Positions 1 to 14,358 of a DNA stretch of 64,000 bases are shown here, one piece after another. The notes under the pieces are model-generated. The model saw only the letters and a program-made list of their open reading frames with translations, did no database searches and was not told where the DNA came from. Made by a program: the position numbers and the translations under genes. Source of the stretch: Escherichia phage UGKSEcP2; sequence record OV876900. One strand, written 5' to 3'. Every line of letters starts with the position of its first letter. Position 1 is the first letter of the stretch.

Positions 1-1
1 G

Positions 2-904
2 GACTTCTTTGCTGACCGCGAATCTGTTGACGTTCAGTTGTTTATTGCGGGTTCTTGTGCCGGTGAATCTTTAGAAACAGCATCTACTGTCCAAAAACAC
101 GTCGTTTCAATTGGAGATGCTCGCCAAGATTGCTTAGTATTGTGCTCACCACCGCGTGAAACTGTTGTTGGAATTCCTGTAACTCGTGCTGTTGATAACT
201 TAGTCAATTGGAGAACCGCATCAGGTTCATACACTGATAATAACTTTAATATCAGTTCAACCTACGCAGCAATTGATGGTAACTACAAGTATCAGTATGA
301 CAAATATAATGATGTAAATCGTTGGGTTCCATTAGCAGCTGACATTGCTGGTTTATGCGCGAGAACTGATAACGTTTCTCAGACTTGGATGTCTCCAGCT
401 GGTTATAATCGTGGCCAGATTCTTAACGTTATTAAACTTGCTATTGAAACTCGCCAAGCTCAGCGCGACCGTTTATATCAAGAAGCTATCAACCCAGTAA
501 CTGGTACAGGTGGTGATGGTTACGTATTATATGGTGATAAAACAGCTACTTCTGTTCCTTCTCCATTTGATCGTATTAACGTTCGTCGTCTGTTTAATAT
601 GTTGAAAACGAATATCGGACGTAGTTCAAAATATCGTTTGTTCGAATTAAACAACGCGTTTACTCGTTCATCGTTCCGCACAGAAACTGCCCAATACTTA
701 CAGGGAATTAAAGCTCTCGGTGGAATTTATGAATATCGTGTAGTTTGCGATACAACAAATAACACTCCGTCAGTAATTGATAGAAATGAGTTTGTTGCAA
801 CATTCTACATTCAACCGGCTAGAAGCATTAACTACATTACCTTAAACTTCGTAGCAACTGCTACTGGTGCAGATTTCGATGAGTTAACTGGTCTTGCAGG
901 TTAA
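2..904 (+). CDS. 18: tail sheath protein gp18, C-terminal part (gene starts upstream of window)
   Basis: Open frame from window edge with no stop; track ORF 38..904 begins at a TTG inside this frame; followed by gp19 as in T4. Confidence 0.85.
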   Translation, partial: DFFADRESVDVQLFIAGSCAGESLETASTVQKHVVSIGDARQDCLVLCSPPRETVVGIPVTRAVDNLVNWRTASGSYTDNNFNISSTYAAIDGNYKYQYDKYNDVNRWVPLAADIAGLCARTDNVSQTWMSPAGYNRGQILNVIKLAIETRQAQRDRLYQEAINPVTGTGGDGYVLYGDKTATSVPSPFDRINVRRLFNMLKTNIGRSSKYRLFELNNAFTRSSFRTETAQYLQGIKALGGIYEYRVVCDTTNNTPSVIDRNEFVATFYIQPARSINYITLNFVATATGADFDELTGLAG

Positions 905-920
905 TACGGTGCATTCTAAA

Positions 921-938
921 GGCCTGTTTCGGCAGGCC
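921..938 (+). terminator. stem-loop after gene 18 (GGCCTG-loop-CAGGCC)
   Basis: 6-bp GC-rich inverted repeat. Confidence 0.5.
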
Positions 939-939
939 A

Positions 940-947
940 TATAAATA
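940..947 (+). promoter_or_regulatory. late promoter TATAAATA (gene 19, distal)
   Basis: Exact TATAAATA just after a stem-loop. Confidence 0.6.
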
Positions 948-998
948 CACTATATCCTTAATTCTTTAATTCTATATGCCCTAGGTTAAACATAGGGA

Positions 999-1006
999 TA
1001 TAAATA
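999..1006 (+). promoter_or_regulatory. late promoter TATAAATA (gene 19, proximal)
   Basis: Exact TATAAATA 15 nt before the gene 19 ATG. Confidence 0.65.
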
Positions 1007-1020
1007 CTACAGAGGCTAAT

Positions 1021-1512
1021 ATGTTTGTAGATGATGTAACACGAGCGTTTGAATCTGGTGATTTTGCTCGACCTAACTTATTCCAAGTAGAAATTTCTTA
1101 TCTTGGACAAAATTTTACGTTTCAATGTAAAGCCACTGCTTTACCAGCTGGTATTGTAGAAAAAATTCCAGTCGGTTTTATGAACCGTAAAATTAACGTA
1201 GCAGGCGATCGTACATTCGATGACTGGACTGTTACAGTAATGAACGATGAGGCACATGATGCTCGCCAGAAGTTTGTTGATTGGCAAAGCATTGCTGCTG
1301 GGCAAGGGAACGAAATTACTGGTGGAAAACCAGCAGAGTATAAAAAGAGTGCTGTTGTTCGCCAATATGCTCGTGACGCTAAAACTGTAACAAAAGAAGT
1401 TGAAATTAAAGGCCTGTGGCCTACTAACGTGGGTGAACTTCAATTAGATTGGGATTCAAACAATGAAATCCAAACCTTTGAAGTAACTCTCGCTCTCGAT
1501 TATTGGGAATAA
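1021..1512 (+). CDS. 19: tail tube protein gp19
   Basis: 163-aa ORF, ATG with upstream AGAGG; size and position match T4 gp19. Confidence 0.9.
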   Translation: MFVDDVTRAFESGDFARPNLFQVEISYLGQNFTFQCKATALPAGIVEKIPVGFMNRKINVAGDRTFDDWTVTVMNDEAHDARQKFVDWQSIAAGQGNEITGGKPAEYKKSAVVRQYARDAKTVTKEVEIKGLWPTNVGELQLDWDSNNEIQTFEVTLALDYWE

Positions 1513-1519
1513 AATGAAT

Positions 1520-1533
1520 GGGGAGAAATCCCC
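1520..1533 (+). other. short stem-loop after gene 19 (GGGGA-GAAA-TCCCC)
   Basis: Inverted repeat with GNRA-type loop, no T-run. Confidence 0.35.
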
Positions 1534-1544
1534 ATCCTGCTTAA

Positions 1545-3169
<1,625 letters not shown>

Positions 3170-3170
<1 letters not shown>

Positions 3171-3409
3171 TGGAAGGTTTAATTGAAGCTATTAAATCAA
3201 ACGACCTCGTAGCCGCTCGTAAATTATTTGCTGAAGCCATGGCTGCAAGAACGATTGATTTAATTAAAGAAGAAAAAATCGCTATCGCTCGTAATTTCTT
3301 AATCGAAGGTGAAGAACCTGAAGATGAAGATGACGAAGATAGCGATGATAAAGACGACAAAAAAGACAAAGACTCTGATGAAGATGACGAAGACGAGGAT
3401 GATGAATAA
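3170..3409 (+). CDS. 67: prohead core protein gp67 (acidic C-terminal tail)
   Basis: 79-aa ORF, TAATG overlap with gene 20 stop; D/E-rich C-terminus. Confidence 0.85.
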
Positions 3410-3834
3410 TGCTTCTGATCCCTGAAACTCATGAATTAGTTCTCGAGAATGTCGAAGCACTTATTCCTGAAGCACAGGGTCGCTTTGACGAATTGTCTTC
3501 TGCTTTAAATAAAGACGATATAAATACAATTGTCGAGAATATGCTTGATGATGAAACTGATTTAGCGGTTGCATTAGCTTCTATTAATGAAGATATGCCG
3601 CTAAATGAATTCATCGTTAAACATGTTTCTGCTCGTGGTGAAATTACACGTACCAAAGACCGCAAAACGCGTGAACGTAATGCATTTCAAACCACCGGGC
3701 TGTCTAAAGCAAAACGTAGACAAATTGCTCGCAAAGCTACCAAAACGAAGATTGCCAATCCAGCAGGTCAATCTCGTGCTCAGCGTAAGCGTAAAAAAGC
3801 TCTTAAACGCCGTAAAGCATTAGGATTAAGCTAA
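3409..3834 (+). CDS. 68: prohead core protein gp68
   Basis: 141-aa ORF, start overlaps gene 67 stop; basic C-terminus. Confidence 0.8.
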
Positions 3835-4472
3835 TGAATGAACCCCAATTACTAATTGAAACTTGGGGTCAACCTGGCGAAATTATTGATGGCGTGCCAA
3901 TGCTTGAATCTCATGATGGAAAAGACCTAGGTTTAAAACCCGGTTTATACATCGAAGGAATATTCATGCAAGCGGAAGTCGTCAATAGAAATAAACGTCT
4001 TTATCCAAAACGCATATTAGAAAAAGCGGTAAAAGACTATATCAATGAGCAAGTTTTAACTAAACAAGCTCTCGGAGAATTAAATCATCCTCCACGCGCT
4101 AATGTTGACCCGATGCAAGCCGCTATCATTATAGAAGATATGTGGTGGAAAGGAAATGACGTATACGGACGAGCTCGTGTTATTGAAGGTGACCATGGTC
4201 CTGGAGATAAATTAGCAGCTAATATTCGTGCCGGATGGATTCCAGGAGTTTCTTCTCGTGGATTAGGTTCATTGACTGACACAAATAAAGGTTATCGTAT
4301 CGTAAACGAAGGATTCAAATTAACTGTAGGTGTTGATGCAGTATGGGGTCCAAGTGCTCCAGATGCATGGGTAACTCCTAAGGAAATTACCGAATCACAG
4401 ACGGCGGAAGCCGATACAAGTGCCGATGACGCCTATATGGCTCTCGCAGAGGCCATGAAAAAAGCGTTATAA
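3834..4472 (+). CDS. 21: prohead core scaffold protein and protease gp21
   Basis: 212-aa ORF, same length as T4 gp21; position between 68 and 22. Confidence 0.9.
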   Translation: MNEPQLLIETWGQPGEIIDGVPMLESHDGKDLGLKPGLYIEGIFMQAEVVNRNKRLYPKRILEKAVKDYINEQVLTKQALGELNHPPRANVDPMQAAIIIEDMWWKGNDVYGRARVIEGDHGPGDKLAANIRAGWIPGVSSRGLGSLTDTNKGYRIVNEGFKLTVGVDAVWGPSAPDAWVTPKEITESQTAEADTSADDAYMALAEAMKKAL

Positions 4473-4475
4473 ATA
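4468..4475 (+). promoter_or_regulatory. late promoter TATAAATA (gene 22)
   Basis: Exact motif overlapping the gene 21 stop codon. Confidence 0.65.
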
Positions 4476-4502
4476 TTATTATCTAAACAACAGGACTACA
4501 AA

Positions 4503-5312
4503 ATGCTTAAAGAACAACTGATTGCTGAAGCGCAAAAAATTGATGCTTCCGTTGCTCTTGATAGTATTTTCGAATCAGTTAATATTTCTCCGGAAGCAAA
4601 AGAAACTTTCGGCACTGTATTCGAAGCTACCGTCAAGCAGCACGCCGTTAAATTAGCTGAATCTCATATCGCTAAAATTGCTGAAAAAGCAGAAGAAGAA
4701 GTAGAAAAAAATAAAGAAGAAGCCGAAGAAAAAGCTGAGAAGAAAATCGCTGAGCAAGCTTCTAAATTCATCGACCATCTTGCGAAAGAATGGCTCGCTG
4801 AAAATAAATTAGCAGTTGATAAAGGCATCAAAGCCGAACTGTTTGAATCCATGCTTGGTGGATTAAAAGAGCTCTTTGTTGAACACAACGTTGTTGTTCC
4901 AGAAGAATCAGTTGATGTTGTAGCTGAAATGGAAGAAGAGCTGCAAGAACATAAAGAAGAATCAGCTCGTCTGTTCGAAGAACTCAATAAGCGTGACGCA
5001 TATATCAATTATGTGCAGCGTGAAGTGGCATTGAGCGAAAGTACTAAAGATCTGACTGAGTCTCAAAAAGAAAAAGTCTCTGCTCTGGTCGAAGGTATGG
5101 ATTATTCAGATGCATTCTCAAGTAAATTGAGTGCCATCGTAGAAATGGTGAAGAAGTCTAATAAAGATGAAAGCACTATTACTGAGGGTATAAATACTCC
5201 TGATACTGAAGCAGCCGGACTGAATTTCGTCACTGAAGCTGTAGAAGATAAAACTGCACCTGGTGCAGAAGATATTGTAAGTGTATATGCGAAAGTCGCA
5301 TCTCGTTTCTAA
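4503..5312 (+). CDS. 22: prohead scaffold protein gp22
   Basis: 269-aa ORF, E/K-rich coiled-coil composition; late promoter upstream. Confidence 0.9.
   Translation: MLKEQLIAEAQKIDASVALDSIFESVNISPEAKETFGTVFEATVKQHAVKLAESHIAKIAEKAEEEVEKNKEEAEEKAEKKIAEQASKFIDHLAKEWLAENKLAVDKGIKAELFESMLGGLKELFVEHNVVVPEESVDVVAEMEEELQEHKEESARLFEELNKRDAYINYVQREVALSESTKDLTESQKEKVSALVEGMDYSDAFSSKLSAIVEMVKKSNKDESTITEGINTPDTEAAGLNFVTEAVEDKTAPGAEDIVSVYAKVASRF
5189..5196 (+). promoter_or_regulatory. late promoter TATAAATA (gene 23), inside 3' end of gene 22
   Basis: Exact motif ~135 nt upstream of the gene 23 ATG. Confidence 0.7.
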
Positions 5313-5330
5313 TTTTAAAGGTTAACACAA

Positions 5331-6896
5331 ATGACTATCAAAACTAAAGCTGAACTTTTGAACAAATGGAAGCCATTACTGGAAGGTGAAGGTTTACCGG
5401 AAATTGCTAATAGCAAACAAGCGATTATCGCTAAAATCTTTGAAAACCAGGAAAAAGATTTCCAGACAGCTCCAGAATACAAAGACGAAAAAATCGCTCA
5501 GGCGTTCGGTTCTTTCTTAACAGAAGCTGAAATCGGTGGTGACCACGGTTACAACGCTACTAACATCGCTGCTGGTCAGACTTCTGGCGCAGTAACTCAG
5601 ATTGGCCCAGCTGTTATGGGTATGGTACGTCGTGCTATTCCTAACCTGATTGCTTTCGATATTTGCGGTGTTCAGCCGATGAATAGCCCGACTGGCCAGG
5701 TATTCGCACTGCGTGCAGTATATGGTAAAGACCCAATCGCTGCTGATGCTAAAGAAGCATTCCACCCAATGTATGGTCCAGATGCAATGTTCTCTGGTCA
5801 GGGTGCTGCTAAGAAATTCACTGCTTTAACTGCTGGCGCTACTACTGTCAAAGGTGACATCTATACTTATTTCTTCCAGGAAACTGGTACTGTATATCTG
5901 CAGGCTTCCTCTGTAGTAACAATTAGTTCAAGTGCTGATGATGCAGCTAAATTAGATGCTGAAATTAAGAAACAAATGGAAGCTGGTGTACTGGTAGAAA
6001 TCGCTGAAGGTATGGCTACTTCTATCGCTGAACTTCAGGAAGGTTTCAACGGTTCTACCGATAACCCATGGAATGAAATGGGCTTCCGTATCGATAAACA
6101 AGTTATCGAAGCTAAATCTCGTCAGCTGAAAGCTGCTTACTCTATCGAATTAGCACAAGACCTCCGCGCTGTTCACGGTATGGATGCTGATGCTGAACTG
6201 TCTGGTATTCTGGCTACCGAAATCATGCTGGAAATCAACCGCGAAGTTGTTGATTGGATTAACTACTCAGCTCAGGTTGGTAAATCTGGTATGACCCTGA
6301 CTCCGGGTTCTAAAGCTGGTGTATTTGACTTCCAGGATCCGATTGATATTCGTGGTGCTCGCTGGGCGGGTGAATCCTTTAAAGCTCTGTTGTTCCAGAT
6401 TGACAAAGAAGCAGTTGAAATTGCTCGTCAGACCGGTCGTGGTGAAGGTAACTTCATTATCGCTTCCCGTAACGTAGTTAACGTTCTGGCTTCAGTTGAT
6501 ACTGGCATTTCTTATGCTGCACAGGGTCTGGCTACCGGCTTTAACACTGATACTACCAAGTCAGTATTTGCTGGTGTTCTGGGTGGTAAATACCGTGTAT
6601 ATATCGACCAGTATGCTAAACAGGATTATTTCACTGTAGGTTATAAAGGTCCGAACGAAATGGATGCTGGTATTTACTACGCTCCATATGTAGCTCTGAC
6701 TCCGCTGCGTGGTTCCGATCCGAAGAACTTCCAACCGGTAATGGGATTCAAAACTCGTTACGGTATCGGTATCAACCCATTTGCAGAATCCGCTGCTCAG
6801 GCTCCGGCTTCTCGCATCCAGAGCGGTATGCCTTCTATTCTGAATAGCCTTGGTAAAAACGCTTACTTCCGCCGTGTATATGTTAAAGGTATCTAA
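5331..6896 (+). CDS. 23: major capsid protein gp23
   Basis: 521-aa ORF; sequence recognised as T4-type gp23; strong codon bias typical of highly expressed gene. Confidence 0.97.
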   Translation: MTIKTKAELLNKWKPLLEGEGLPEIANSKQAIIAKIFENQEKDFQTAPEYKDEKIAQAFGSFLTEAEIGGDHGYNATNIAAGQTSGAVTQIGPAVMGMVRRAIPNLIAFDICGVQPMNSPTGQVFALRAVYGKDPIAADAKEAFHPMYGPDAMFSGQGAAKKFTALTAGATTVKGDIYTYFFQETGTVYLQASSVVTISSSADDAAKLDAEIKKQMEAGVLVEIAEGMATSIAELQEGFNGSTDNPWNEMGFRIDKQVIEAKSRQLKAAYSIELAQDLRAVHGMDADAELSGILATEIMLEINREVVDWINYSAQVGKSGMTLTPGSKAGVFDFQDPIDIRGARWAGESFKALLFQIDKEAVEIARQTGRGEGNFIIASRNVVNVLASVDTGISYAAQGLATGFNTDTTKSVFAGVLGGKYRVYIDQYAKQDYFTVGYKGPNEMDAGIYYAPYVALTPLRGSDPKNFQPVMGFKTRYGIGINPFAESAAQAPASRIQSGMPSILNSLGKNAYFRRVYVKGI

Positions 6897-6911
6897 TCTT
6901 TGACGATTTAA

Positions 6912-6927
6912 GGGACCTTCGGGTCCC
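6912..6927 (+). terminator. terminator after gene 23 (GGGACC-TTCG-GGTCCC + T-run)
   Basis: Perfect hairpin with UUCG tetraloop followed by TTT..TTTTT. Confidence 0.75.
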
Positions 6928-6944
6928 TTTAGTTGTTTTTATGG

Positions 6945-6952
6945 TATAAATA
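6945..6952 (+). promoter_or_regulatory. late promoter TATAAATA (gene 24)
   Basis: Exact motif between the gene 23 terminator and gene 24. Confidence 0.7.
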
Positions 6953-6979
6953 AATCATATAAACCAAAAGGAAAGCGCA

Positions 6980-8263
6980 ATGGCTAAAATCAACGAACTT
7001 CTGCGCGAATCAACCACAACGAATAGCAACTCAATCGGTCGCCCAAATCTCGTTGCTTTGACTCGCGCTACCACTAAATTAATATATTCTGACATTGTAG
7101 CAACGCAAAGAACTAATCAACCTGTTGCTGCTTTTTATGGTATCAAATACCTTAACCCGGATAACGAATTTACATTTAAAACTGGTGCTACTTACGCCGG
7201 CGAAGCTGGGTATGTAGACCGAGAACAAATCACAGAATTAACAGAAGAGTCTAAATTAACTCTCAATAAAGGCGATTTATTCAAATATAATAATATCGTT
7301 TATAAAGTATTAGAAGATACACCATTTGCTGATATTGAAGAAAGCGATTTAGAATTAGCTCTTCAGATTGCAATTGTTCTTTTAAAAGTTCGTCTATTTT
7401 CTGATGCTGCAGTAACAAGCAAATTTGAAAGCTCTAATAGTGAAATTGCGGATGCTAGATTCCAGATTAATAAATGGCAAACCGCAGTTAAATCTCGTAA
7501 ACTTAAAACTGGCATCACAGTCGAATTAGCACAAGATTTAGAAGCAAATGGATTCGATGCTCCTAATTTCTTGGAAGATTTGCTTGCAACTGAAATGGCG
7601 GATGAAATCAATAAAGATATTCTACAGTCTTTGATTACAGTATCAAAACGCTATAAAGTTACAGGAATTACTGATACTGGATTCATTGATTTGAGTTATG
7701 CATCTGCACCTGAAGCTGGTCGTTCATTATACCGAATGGTGTGTGAAATGGTTTCACATATCCAAAAAGAATCAACTTATACAGCAACGTTCTGTGTTGC
7801 TTCAGCTCGTGCCGCTGCGATTCTTGCTGCATCAGGTTGGTTAAAACATAAACCAGAAGATGACAAATATCTTTCACAAAATGCCTACGGGTTCTTAGCT
7901 AATGGTTTACCGCTTTATTGCGATACCAACAGTCCATTAGATTATGTAATCGTTGGCGTAGTAGAAAATATTGGTGAAAAAGAAATTGTTGGATCAATTT
8001 TCTATGCTCCGTATACAGAAGGTCTTGACTTAGATGACCCTGAACATGTAGGTGCATTTAAAGTTGTAGTTGATCCAGAAAGTTTGCAGCCATCTATCGG
8101 TTTATTAGTTAGATATGCTTTATCTGCAAATCCTTACACTGTAGCAAAAGATGAAAAAGAAGCAAGAGTAATTGATGGTGGAGACATGGATAAAATGGCG
8201 GGTCGTTCAGATTTGTCTGTTTTATTAGGTGTTAAGTTACCAAAAATTATCATTGATGAATAA
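6980..8263 (+). CDS. 24: capsid vertex protein gp24
   Basis: 427-aa ORF, gp23 paralogue (shared ELAQDL motif), late promoter upstream. Confidence 0.93.
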   Translation: MAKINELLRESTTTNSNSIGRPNLVALTRATTKLIYSDIVATQRTNQPVAAFYGIKYLNPDNEFTFKTGATYAGEAGYVDREQITELTEESKLTLNKGDLFKYNNIVYKVLEDTPFADIEESDLELALQIAIVLLKVRLFSDAAVTSKFESSNSEIADARFQINKWQTAVKSRKLKTGITVELAQDLEANGFDAPNFLEDLLATEMADEINKDILQSLITVSKRYKVTGITDTGFIDLSYASAPEAGRSLYRMVCEMVSHIQKESTYTATFCVASARAAAILAASGWLKHKPEDDKYLSQNAYGFLANGLPLYCDTNSPLDYVIVGVVENIGEKEIVGSIFYAPYTEGLDLDDPEHVGAFKVVVDPESLQPSIGLLVRYALSANPYTVAKDEKEARVIDGGDMDKMAGRSDLSVLLGVKLPKIIIDE

Positions 8264-9588: not shown

Positions 9589-9786
9589 TCACCTTTTATT
9601 AATATGTCTTTTTCTATAGACAACTTTTTCTCGAGTTTCAAATTTATTCTTAGCAGTCATAGCTCGAGCCCATAATACAGCCACTTCTTTCGCCTGTAAG
9701 TTTAATTCACGAGCAATTTCAATGAATGACTTTCCAGACTCATGAAGAGTAAACACCACAACCTCAGTTCTCATAATCAATCTCAT
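9589..9786 (-). CDS. hypothetical small basic protein (rnlB-hoc interval)
   Basis: 65-aa ORF, ATG start. Confidence 0.55.
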   Translation of the reverse strand: MRLIMRTEVVVFTLHESGKSFIEIARELNLQAKEVAVLWARAMTAKNKFETREKVVYRKRHINKR

Positions 9787-9854
9787 GTTATCGAGTTGAT
9801 GCCATTATATACATCATTTTCTGAGTATGTTTTGTGTGCTTTCAAAATGAAGAA

Positions 9855-9870
9855 AGGGGCCGAAGCCCCT
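9855..9870 (-). terminator. terminator after hoc
   Basis: GGGGC-TTCG-GCCCC on minus strand followed by U-rich tract. Confidence 0.65.
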
Positions 9871-9881
9871 TATGATTATGA

Positions 9882-11594
9882 TTATGGATAGGTATAGATG
9901 ATACCAGTTTCTAAAGCAGTTTTATGAATGATGTATCCATTACGTGATTCTTGAACATCAACTTCTGGATAGTCTTTCATCATCTTCTGAAGAGTGTAAC
10001 GATGCAGGTAGTATTTACTGTCTGGATCTTCAGTTTTCCAATCTTTACCTTCTTCGGTCATTTTTTGGATTTCATCCATAACCCACCAACCGCACCAGAT
10101 ATAAGCTGAAGTACGATGTGGAAGAGGATGAACATAAGGCAATTCACCTTCTGGTTCCGGAGCAACTTTATCAGTTACCTGAACTTGGCCTGTTGCTTTA
10201 ACTGTTTTACTATCATAGTCGGTTGCTGTAACGACAGCAGTAACTTCAATAGTTTGACTTCCAATAGATGAGGTGTCAACGGTGTATACGTTAGTTGACC
10301 CTTCTACAGGAGAAGAATCTTTCTTCCATGAATAAGTAATTTGTGCTGCTTCAGGTGCTCCAGTAACATTAGCCGTAAATGTAGCCGAAGCATCTTGCTG
10401 AACGTTAATAGAAGGAGGAGTCAATGTAACCTGTGGATTCATTGTCTTCTTATTAACTGTCAATGATACTTCATTAGAAGTAACTTCCTTTTCATTGTAA
10501 TTTTCAGCCGTTACTTGGGCTACACACTTAACTGTTTTAGCTCCAACTGTGGTAGGAGTATAGTTAAATGTAGTAGTAGTTTCTCCATCGACCAGAGAAC
10601 CGTCAACATACCACTGATACGTAGCAGACGCTCCTGGTGGCTGTGAAGCCAAGGCAGCAGTAAATTGAACTGGGGTTCCAATTACCCCGGCAGCAGGATT
10701 AGCAGGAGTTACGGCTAACGTAGTTGTCTGTGTTTTCTTATTAACTGTTAATGATACTTCATTAGAAGTAACTGTTTTTGCGTCATAATCTGTTGCTGTT
10801 ACTTGCGCTACGCATTTAATTCTTTTTACTCCACTTGCAGTTGGAGTATAGCTAAATGTAGCAGAAGTCGCTTCACCAATTTGAGAATCATCTACATACC
10901 ACTGATACGTAGCAGATGCCCCATCAGGTTGAGAAGCTAAGGCAGCAGTAAATTCAACGGCTGTTCCAATCACTCCAGCTGGAGGACTATCAGGAGTTAC
11001 TGCCAAGGTAGTCGTCTGCGTCTTTTTATTAACAGTCAATGATACTTCATTAGAAGTAACGCTTAGTGCATCATAATCTGCCGCAGTTACTTGAGCTACA
11101 CACTTGATTTTTTTAACTCCGCTTGTGTCAGGAGTGTAATTGAATGTAGCGTCAGTTGCTTCGTCTACAGGAGAACCGTCAACGTGCCATTGATACGTAG
11201 CGTTTGCACCTGATGGCTGTGAAGCTAAGGCAGCGGTAAATTCAATTGGAGTTCCAATCACGCCAGCATCAGGGCTACCAGGAGTTACAGCTAAAGTAGT
11301 TGTTTGTGTCTTATTTTGAACTGTGATAGTTGTCGTAGTTTCTGCTGTTTCAGGTTCAGCTTCAGATTCTGGAACTGTATTTGTTGCAACTACTTTAATA
11401 GTCTTTTGACCTGCAGGTCCTTTTAGTACATAGCTAAAAGTTGCTTCAGCTCCATCCTGTGGAACATTATCTACACTCCAAGCATAGGTAATAGTTCCAC
11501 CTTCAGTTTGACCACTGGGTGTAGCAGTAAACTGCTTGGTTTCATCAATAACTCCTGTTGGGGTTTTAGGAGTTATATCAACTGTAAAAGTCAT
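9882..11594 (-). CDS. hoc: Hoc, highly immunogenic outer capsid protein, enlarged allele with five Ig-like domains
   Basis: 570-aa ORF; three tandem ~97-aa Ig-like repeats plus conserved C-terminal capsid-binding segment YVHPLPHRTSAYIWCGWW. Confidence 0.9.
   Translation of the reverse strand: MTFTVDITPKTPTGVIDETKQFTATPSGQTEGGTITYAWSVDNVPQDGAEATFSYVLKGPAGQKTIKVVATNTVPESEAEPETAETTTTITVQNKTQTTTLAVTPGSPDAGVIGTPIEFTAALASQPSGANATYQWHVDGSPVDEATDATFNYTPDTSGVKKIKCVAQVTAADYDALSVTSNEVSLTVNKKTQTTTLAVTPDSPPAGVIGTAVEFTAALASQPDGASATYQWYVDDSQIGEATSATFSYTPTASGVKRIKCVAQVTATDYDAKTVTSNEVSLTVNKKTQTTTLAVTPANPAAGVIGTPVQFTAALASQPPGASATYQWYVDGSLVDGETTTTFNYTPTTVGAKTVKCVAQVTAENYNEKEVTSNEVSLTVNKKTMNPQVTLTPPSINVQQDASATFTANVTGAPEAAQITYSWKKDSSPVEGSTNVYTVDTSSIGSQTIEVTAVVTATDYDSKTVKATGQVQVTDKVAPEPEGELPYVHPLPHRTSAYIWCGWWVMDEIQKMTEEGKDWKTEDPDSKYYLHRYTLQKMMKDYPEVDVQESRNGYIIHKTALETGIIYTYP
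10440..11312 (-). repeat. three tandem ~291-bp coding repeats inside hoc (Ig-like domain modules)
   Basis: Recurring blocks such as TTAACTGTCAATGATACTTCATTAGAAGTAAC near 10447, 10737 and 11027; repeat peptides ~80% identical. Confidence 0.8.
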
Positions 11595-11603
11595 AAGTTA
11601 TCC

Positions 11604-12284
11604 TTATTTTAATGTTACGAAAGAAGAATTGCGTGTTTCACGAATTAGAACTGATCCGTCACGATTAATGTAGTAAATTAAGCTAAATAAAGTTTGATGC
11701 GCAGACGCATGTTCAAAACTGGTTGGGCGAGATTTCCAATCTGGAGTTTCAGCAATCCATTGGTAAATCCACCAAGGAACAGTGCAGAATCCTGGATTTT
11801 TTCCAATCAGCTGAAGATTTGGGCTAAAGTTTTCCGGAAGAGTAAATACAGACGGCTTTTCAGATTCAATAATCTCAGCTACAGCCTGCTCGAATTTTTC
11901 TTCAACAAAAGGAGTATCTTCAATCAAAACATCAGTATTTTCAGGAATTTTATCCATTTCTACTACTTCAATTTTAATGTCAGATTTAACCGGAGAATCA
12001 ATCAGAAGTGCTGCCTCTGGATTGACTTCTTCATCGTCATATTTTAATCCGTCTGCGGCATCAGCAGCATCGATTAAGTCTTTAATAGATAACCCATCAG
12101 TCTCTGGCATAGGTTCACTAGCGAGCTTCTGGAGGGCTTCTTCAATATCATTAACGATATTATCAAAAGATTTATTCTTTTTGACCTTTATACCAAACTG
12201 TTCAGCATATTCAGCTAATTTAGCTTTAGCTTCTTTATTATCATCAAGAGCCTTCAGCTCTGCAATATAATCTTTATCTATCAT
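11604..12284 (-). CDS. inh: Inh, inhibitor of prohead protease
   Basis: 226-aa ORF in the position of T4 inh, downstream of hoc on same strand. Confidence 0.7.
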   Translation of the reverse strand: MIDKDYIAELKALDDNKEAKAKLAEYAEQFGIKVKKNKSFDNIVNDIEEALQKLASEPMPETDGLSIKDLIDAADAADGLKYDDEEVNPEAALLIDSPVKSDIKIEVVEMDKIPENTDVLIEDTPFVEEKFEQAVAEIIESEKPSVFTLPENFSPNLQLIGKNPGFCTVPWWIYQWIAETPDWKSRPTSFEHASAHQTLFSLIYYINRDGSVLIRETRNSSFVTLK

Positions 12285-12297
12285 AATATTTCCTCAG

Positions 12298-12305
12298 TAT
12301 AAATA
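12298..12305 (+). promoter_or_regulatory. late promoter TATAAATA (uvsW)
   Basis: Exact motif 30 nt upstream of the uvsW ATG. Confidence 0.65.
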
Positions 12306-12334
12306 TAGATATATTTATTACATGGTATTTAGAC

Positions 12335-14350: not shown

Positions 14351-14358
14351 TATTTATA
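14351..14358 (-). promoter_or_regulatory. late promoter TATAAATA for the small Cys-rich ORF
   Basis: TATTTATA on + strand. Confidence 0.5.

Follow-up and report, generated by a model that had tools for sequence, protein, structure and literature searches.

What makes the Hoc protein of Escherichia phage UGKSEcP2 570 aa long, when Hoc of phage T4 has 376 aa, and how the additional length arose are the questions raised by the hoc locus of this phage. T4 Hoc is the textbook case of phage mucus adherence and also serves as a platform for display in vaccines and engineered vectors. The locus was analysed within a stretch of 64,000 nucleotides of the genome of UGKSEcP2, a T4-like phage of the genus Tequatrovirus (sequence record OV876900); this stretch is referred to below as the window. 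The gene occupies the position typical of hoc in T4, being flanked by inh (11604..12284) and by homologues of 24.3, 24.2 and rnlB, near capsid genes 23 and 24. Just upstream of the locus lie two ORFs that presumably encode gp23 and gp24, as their products of 521 aa and 427 aa have the sizes of these proteins; gene 24 is located just upstream of rnlB in the T4 annotation. The gene order rnlB-24.2-24.3-hoc-inh-uvsW is the same in T4 (NC_000866) and in Escherichia phage UGKSEcP1, and the 4-kb stretch around hoc is 99.7% identical to the latter phage. The source of both UGKSEcP1 and UGKSEcP2 was hospital effluent in Uganda; the paper describing them, checked for comment on Hoc, does not mention this protein (PMC11317518). 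A protein identical to the UGKSEcP2 product residue for residue is deposited as CAH1615504.1 under the name of ‘Hoc-like head decoration’ protein. The signals adjoining the gene are listed in Table 1 together with its domains; no minus-strand copy of the T4 late-promoter sequence TATAAATA was found directly upstream of hoc or inside inh, the nearest one being located at 14351.

Table 1. Features of the hoc locus of phage UGKSEcP2 and nearest relatives of the segments of the gene. Positions refer to the window, except where gene nucleotides (nt) are indicated.
Feature	Position	Strand	Details or basis
hoc CDS, 570 aa + stop	9882..11594	(-)	ORF list, homology
Ribosome-binding site AAGGA	11601..11605	(-)	6 nt upstream of hoc ATG, overlaps inh stop codon; sequence read directly
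Domain 1, N-terminal Ig-like, aa 1-94	11313..11594	(-)	Acidic tail PESEAEPETAE
Domain-2 unit R1, aa 95-190	11025..11312	(-)	Cassette type A
Domain-2 unit R2, aa 191-286	10737..11024	(-)	Cassette type D (B')
Domain-2 unit R3, aa 287-382	10449..10736	(-)	Cassette type C
Domain 3, divergent Ig-like, aa 383-476	10167..10448	(-)	Pfam Ig_3 / I-set; orthologue of T4 domain 3
C-terminal capsid-binding domain, aa 477-570	9882..10166	(-)	Nearly identical to T4 Hoc 283-376
Terminator-like hairpin AGGGGC-TTCG-GCCCCT, then T-rich run	9845..9870	(-)	12 nt past hoc stop; sequence read directly
Domain 1 + start of R1	gene nt 1-315		Nearest LF73P3 (one unit), 0 mismatches
R1 + R2	gene nt 261-859		Nearest ESh33 (two units, A-D), 2 mismatches
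End of R2 + R3	gene nt 789-1159		Nearest Killian (A-C), one unit out of register, 2 mismatches
Domain 3 + C-terminus, 567 nt			Nearest LF73P3, 2 mismatches
Putative left crossover zone, domain 1 / R1 junction	11279..11333	(-)	LF73P3 to nt 315, ESh33 from nt 261
Putative right crossover zone, last ~70 nt of R2	10735..10805	(-)	Matches ends of ESh33 unit 2 and Killian unit 1

A sequence-only reading of the window had proposed that the protein carries two extra tandem Ig-like domains in comparison with T4 Hoc. Three lines of analysis agree on this point. Tandem Repeats Finder reported a single array at 10443-11324 with a period of 288, 3.1 copies, 77% matches and a score of 985. A phmmer search against the PDB aligned residues 1-190 of T4 Hoc (PDB 5vf3 chain Z, 376 aa) to residues 1-192 of the query, and residues 96-376 to residues 290-570 (538 bits); accordingly, T4 Hoc contains exactly one domain-2 unit, as the earlier reading had stated. 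The T4 gene has a length of 1131 bp in NC_000866. A profile of the unit detected five Ig-like domains in the 570-aa Hoc, as against four and three in homologues of 472 aa and 376 aa, respectively. It is thus confirmed that the UGKSEcP2 ORF is a hoc gene encoding two more Ig-like domains than T4 hoc. The repeat had been described as about 97 aa (about 291 bp) long with copies roughly 80% identical; these figures need slight correction, to 96 aa (288 bp) and to measured pairwise identities of 74-80% for the protein and 76-78% for the DNA.

The conserved capsid-binding C-terminus noted at the first inspection is present as well. The C-terminal ~95 residues show two to three differences from the corresponding part of T4 Hoc (~281-376), and the motif YVHPLPHRTSAYIWCGWW matches T4 Hoc 293-310 with one substitution, S301T. 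The remainder of the protein is a string of Ig-like domains with Pfam matches to PKD, Ig_2, Ig_3 and I-set. An AlphaFold2 model of the 570-aa protein, built on 38 homologues (mean pLDDT 83), contains five all-β domains in residues 1-476 with a pLDDT of ~85-94, followed by a C-terminal domain modelled with low confidence; the count of Ig folds by structure prediction agrees with the domain number derived from the repeats. Foldseek matches of the model are also strings of Ig domains, including CEA, five-domain ICAM-1, neurofascin and Dscam, with low TM-scores (0.13-0.19), as the flexible six-domain rod gives no global superposition and the matches support only an Ig-type fold. The N-terminal domains of RB49 Hoc correspond to structure 3SHS.

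The origin of the additional units can be approached through their relatives. Cassette typing was conducted with 169 domain-2 units cut from the best 120 homologues, in which the units group by type and not by phage. Nearly all two- and three-copy Hocs of this set have type A as their first unit, and six one-copy proteins have it as their sole unit. The T4-like type B stands alone in 71 proteins and takes second place in 22 two-copy proteins. The array ends with type C in five three-copy and five two-copy proteins, and two further proteins have this type alone; type D is R2 of UGKSEcP2 Hoc. The arrangements seen comprise B, A-B, A, A-C, A-B-C, A-D, A-D-C (UGKSEcP2), A-B-D, C, B-C and others. 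Within the genus, one, two, three and four units correspond to Hoc lengths of 376, 472, 568-570 and 664 aa. The short one-unit allele is present in T4, T2, T6, RB32 and other classical strains. Two units (472 aa) were found in phages HP3, Killian, ESh33, KarlGJung and pSs-1, and three (568 aa) in UGKSEcP1, YUEEL01, EC101, ESh16/26/36 and T4_ev151. Phages slur03/slur14, vB_EcoM_FJ1 and Sfk20 have four units, that is six Ig-like domains (664 aa), in proteins of the same 90% cluster as UGKSEcP2 Hoc.

To assess the frequency of these alleles, 60 of 680 phage records matching hoc were sampled at even spacing: 33 genes had the one-unit length, 20 the two-unit length and one the three-unit length, the other six being partial or belonging to other genera. 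Among the top tblastn matches, three- or four-unit hoc genes occur in about 20 records. Consequently, a Hoc with five Ig-like domains is an ordinary architecture; about a third of T4-like coliphages possess extra copies of domain 2. The cassettes are old paralogues that circulate among T4-like coliphages in alleles of one to four copies. Domain number is labile even among close relatives, as had been supposed from the sequence of the gene: phage LF73P3 has flanking domains near-identical to those of UGKSEcP2, yet a single copy of the unit.

Comparison of the UGKSEcP2 allele with these relatives, segment by segment, revealed a change of nearest relative where domain 1 meets R1 and within the final ~70 nt of R2. 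The DNA of domain 1 is 100% identical to that of LF73P3, and a 6-nt indel separates it from that of UGKSEcP1; domain 3 with the C-terminus is 99.6% identical to LF73P3. R1 rounds to 100% DNA identity with unit 1 of ESh33, YUEEL01 and UGKSEcP1, with a single mismatch each against ESh33 and YUEEL01. R2 has one mismatch to unit 2 of ESh33, again rounding to 100%, and shares 90% DNA identity with the single unit of T4. R3 is 99% identical in DNA to unit 2 of Killian, and its protein sequence is 99% identical to the sole domain 2 of the one-copy Hocs of P0115 and P0114 (vB_Eco_Geo). The right-hand zone of change includes GTTACTTCTAATGAAGTATCATT, a run of 23-26 nt encoding VTSNEVSL, which is the longest run identical in all three units. 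Judging by these comparisons, UGKSEcP2 hoc is a recombinant mosaic of LF73P3-like, ESh33-like and Killian-like segments.

The A-D-C block is common to UGKSEcP2, YUEEL01 and UGKSEcP1 nearly base for base. In YUEEL01, it shows five mismatches over 815 nt and is combined with a different domain 1 and a different domain 3; therefore, the block was not created in UGKSEcP2, and it moves as a module. The mapped breakpoints suggest that phages infecting the same cell would alter the order and copy number of their cassettes through homologous recombination, to which out-of-register crossovers within the conserved ends of the units (288 bp) may contribute. A parent with the A-D arrangement and another with A-C, both modelled on present-day relatives, could have produced A-D-C through one out-of-register crossover. 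As a whole, it is quite likely that UGKSEcP2 carries a long hoc allele in which recombination-shuffled A-D-C cassettes were placed between domain 1 and domain 3 with a T4-type anchor; the result would be a longer fibre.

Recombination also takes place below the level of whole cassettes. It was assessed with 35 distinct units from 21 hoc genes; GenBank loci (n=17) were used for the DNA sample in preference to those of an IMG/VR scan, which gave 21 loci, mostly from other genera. In the 35 units, the four-gamete test was failed by 72% of informative site pairs, and a PHI-like statistic was 0.762 against 0.927 ± 0.016, a value as low being reached in none of 1000 site permutations. The four loop segments of these units are found in 26 different combinations, and the loop segments thus reassort. 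Variation is concentrated mainly in predicted loops, the mean entropy being 0.62 bits outside strands and 0.31 bits in strands. The last 12 codons of the unit have a synonymous diversity of 0.22 versus 0.35 in the interior, a weak difference (p = 0.057, Mann–Whitney), and the first 11 codons showed no difference in synonymous diversity from the interior.

These patterns can be taken further, with the domain-2 cassettes regarded as a recombination-driven system of combinatorial variation, where crossovers occur at the in-phase ends of the units and the variation is under selection. This is a tentative idea that we consider rather unlikely. Its components are four or more cassette types, one to four copies, and loop segments that move among alleles and paralogous positions. 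If it were true, selection could favour evasion of anti-Hoc antibodies or a switch to different mucin glycans in animal guts, and the variation in repeat number and cassettes would resemble that of bacterial surface adhesins.

The preferred explanation, a long allele shuffled by recombination, would have consequences for the virion surface. UGKSEcP2 Hoc has a predicted mass of 60.7 kDa, a pI of 4.6 and a net charge of about −26; the values for T4 Hoc are 40.4 kDa and about −14. In T4, every gp23 hexamer of the mature capsid has one Hoc monomer at its centre, with 155 per head. The C-terminal domain of T4 Hoc can be seen in its capsid-bound state in PDB 5vf3, and because the C-terminal domain of UGKSEcP2 Hoc is almost identical to it, the same attachment and number of copies per capsid can be expected. 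Through this domain, single UGKSEcP2 Hoc monomers would then occupy the centres of gp23 hexamers, and a string of five Ig-like domains would project from the capsid, versus three in T4. [quoted passage not shown] By extrapolation from T4's 180 Å, the fibre would be extended from ~18 nm to roughly 26-27 nm.

The additional units might also participate in adhesion. In Hoc of phage PNJ-9, residues SLT 183-185 of domain 2 are needed for binding of MUC2 (Fu et al., PMC11853027). An SLT motif is found in UGKSEcP2 Hoc at 185-187, 281-283 and 377-379, corresponding to unit positions 91-93 in all three units. For PNJ-6 Hoc, binding of MUC2 was reported for domain 1 and was absent with isolated domain 2 (PMC11150434). 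By analogy with these proteins, the extra units may add binding sites, or they may merely act as spacers that push domain 1 outward. A longer and more acidic fibre with a tripled SLT motif could alter adherence to glycans, mucus or cells, as well as dispersion and antigenicity. Adherence to mucin or glycans has been proposed for multi-Ig Hocs (PMC10385173, PMC13435897, PMC11853027), and an adaptive, glycan-binding role of domain number, which had been suggested at the outset, is plausible and fits these published views.

In the opposite case, the extra domains would be a near-neutral by-product of the high recombination of T4-like phages and at most inert spacers. The behaviour of isolated PNJ-6 domain 2 agrees with that, as does the coexistence of one- to four-copy alleles in close relatives from sewage, faeces and hospital effluent, and Hoc is dispensable in the laboratory (PMC9958956). 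However, every domain-2 copy is under purifying selection: dN/dS between the copies of UGKSEcP2 is 0.11-0.24 (Nei–Gojobori), and orthologous cassette types have similar values. In addition, all copies are predicted to be folded (pLDDT ~90), and substitutions are distributed unevenly along the domain, being concentrated in the loops. Furthermore, useless direct repeats should vanish by recombination, but about a third of the records are multi-copy. Taken together, these data make a near-neutral role improbable.

The sequence-only reading had attributed the similarity of the copies to recent in-frame duplication, and this part of it did not hold. Synonymous divergence (dS) between R1, R2 and R3, estimated by the Nei–Gojobori method, is 0.66-1.2. 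For comparison, dS between UGKSEcP2 and T4, ESh33, YUEEL01 and Killian is 0.01-0.16 in inh; between UGKSEcP2 and T4 it is 0.26 in rnlB and 0.36 in hoc domain 3 with the C-terminus. Because dS between the copies is several times that of flanking orthologues (0.01-0.26), the copies must be old or imported: they predate the divergence of the sampled genus, or came from outside it. A T4-type domain 2 duplicated twice in tandem in the recent history of the UGKSEcP2 lineage, followed by slight drift, would have left units that are clearly homologous and exactly in phase at 288 bp, as these are. It would also have left copies closest to each other with low dS, a pattern that was not found: the between-copy dS is several times the genus-wide orthologue dS, the identity among the copies is as low as 76-78% in DNA, and each copy has counterparts with 99-100% identity in other phages at other copy numbers, even as the sole domain 2. 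The occurrence of the same A-D-C block in YUEEL01 between a different domain 1 and domain 3 points in the same direction, and recent duplication is highly improbable.

Finally, an artefactual repeat count is almost certainly not the explanation: short-read assemblers can miscount tandem repeats, and frameshifts interrupt a number of hoc genes in the databases (e.g. in vB_Eco_EL, UPWr_E2 and UFV05), but the copies discussed here differ at ~23% of positions with a longest in-register exact run of 26 nt, so that short reads and ordinary k-mers resolve them, the reading frame is intact across all units, and the 568-570-aa architecture recurs in assemblies from ENA, JGI and Logan as well as in ~20 GenBank genomes of independent origin.

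In practical terms, laboratory T4 represents the shortest common allele, and about a third of its natural relatives have two units and a few per cent have three or four. The natural series of one to four units constitutes a ready set of alleles for relating fibre length and valency to mucus binding and immunogenicity. Copy number is also relevant to the choice and engineering of therapeutic T4-like phages, as regards gut retention, immunogenicity and display reach.

Surface-exposed Ig-like and PKD-like domains are thought to bind carbohydrate weakly. Ig-like accessory domains on phage virions were reportedly treated by Fraser et al. in 2006 (J Mol Biol 359:496), and the model of bacteriophage adherence to mucus is said to go back to Barr et al. 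in 2013. The variability of Hoc domain number is already known from published work. A set of 650 Hoc homologues was described as ‘strings of Ig-like domains’, the number reaching 10 in Serratia phage Muldoon (PMC10385173); Klebsiella phage PMBT63 has a four-Ig Hoc (PMC13435897), and PNJ-9 Hoc is a three-domain protein without domain 3 (PMC11853027). The UGKSEcP2 protein, too, was already deposited and annotated. The search yielded general remarks on varying domain number but no paper on the series of one to four cassettes or on its recombinational origin in Tequatrovirus, with thin coverage of subscription journals, where an earlier description is possible. The cassette series and its recombinational origin are a refinement of known Hoc variability and not a new type of system.

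Among the closest known counterparts of UGKSEcP2 Hoc are the deposited long Hocs of Tequatrovirus, which have the same cassette family and junctions. They differ in the flanks, domain 1 and domain 3 with the C-terminus of UGKSEcP2 being LF73P3-like, and the 568-aa proteins lack two codons that are present in the tail of UGKSEcP2 domain 1. T4 Hoc (NP_049793, 5vf3 chain Z) is encoded at the same gene position, and each UGKSEcP2 unit is homologous to its domain 2; T4 Hoc, however, has one such unit, whereas UGKSEcP2 Hoc has three. The Hocs of Muldoon, PMBT63 and PNJ-9 share with it the general plan of a variable Ig string on a conserved C-terminal anchor, but they are distant in sequence, and the variation in Tequatrovirus consists of reassorted, closely related domain-2 cassettes within one genus.

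The hoc gene of the window, encoding a capsid fibre protein with five Ig-like domains, differs from that of the T4-like phage UGKSEcP1 solely by a two-codon indel in the acidic tail of the N-terminal Ig-like domain (domain 1), which accounts for the lengths of the two proteins, 570 and 568 aa, respectively. The indel site is an acidic low-complexity stretch, …PESEAEPETAE…. The longer version of the domain 1 tail seen in the window is also present in phage LF73P3, where Hoc has 378 aa compared with 376 aa in T4.

The hoc regions of phages HP3 (NC_041919) and mobillu (MN850622) are 87–90% identical to the Tequatrovirus hoc of the window and contain the same cassettes, the 96-aa copies of T4 Hoc domain 2. 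Record taxonomy places these phages in Rosemountvirus and Mosigvirus, respectively; both genus names are likely to be outdated or erroneous. A 28-nt 'repeat_region' is annotated within hoc in the mobillu record. Two phages named as T4 derivatives possess unlike hoc alleles, with three units and 568 aa in T4_ev151 (LR597660.1) and one unit in T4_ev240 (LR597657.1). These may be recombinant or evolved phages rather than T4 itself; the sole paper found in a literature search for the T4_ev name was a study of a Shigella phage cocktail.

In a noticeable number of T4-like GenBank genomes, the hoc annotation is split into two or three CDS fragments (see table). The spans of the fragmented genes deviate by 1–20 nt from an in-frame length, and such annotations could represent either frameshift pseudogenes of a dispensable gene or sequencing errors. 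For T2, hoc has three fragments; this would be consistent with an old report in which T2 capsids were said to lack Hoc.

Features of the hoc neighbourhood and records with fragmented hoc
Feature	Position	Strand	Description
Indel relative to UGKSEcP1 hoc	window 11354-11359; gene nt 236-241		6 nt (2 codons), domain 1 tail
Gene 24.3 homologue	window 9589-9786	-	65 aa, called from ATG
inh–uvsW intergenic gap	window 12285-12334		only 50 nt, where T4 has segE
Fragmented hoc, vB_Eco_EL	878-2615 of the vB_Eco_EL locus		
Fragmented hoc, other records			T2 (PV648363), OE5505, IME537, FriedrichMiescher, SfPhi01, NHEP10, UPWr_E2, UFV05, a20

The true start of the 24.3 homologue is uncertain; annotated lengths are 56 aa in T4, 61 aa in UGKSEcP1 and 71 aa in the T4-like phage ESh33, and an overlap with 24.2 is seen in some relatives. 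Across the whole window, 17 copies of the T4 late-promoter core TATAAATA are present against 8.1 ± 2.6 expected copies, and none of 100 shuffles contained at least 17. The majority of copies are located immediately upstream of plus-strand structural genes at 900-7000; a motif search of the whole window found none directly upstream of hoc on the hoc strand.

Some relatives (ESh16, ESh36 and ZCEC15) have a homing endonuclease in the inh–uvsW region. In T4, this interval is occupied by the GIY-YIG homing endonuclease gene segE (3558-4175 of the T4 locus), which is missing at this position in the window.
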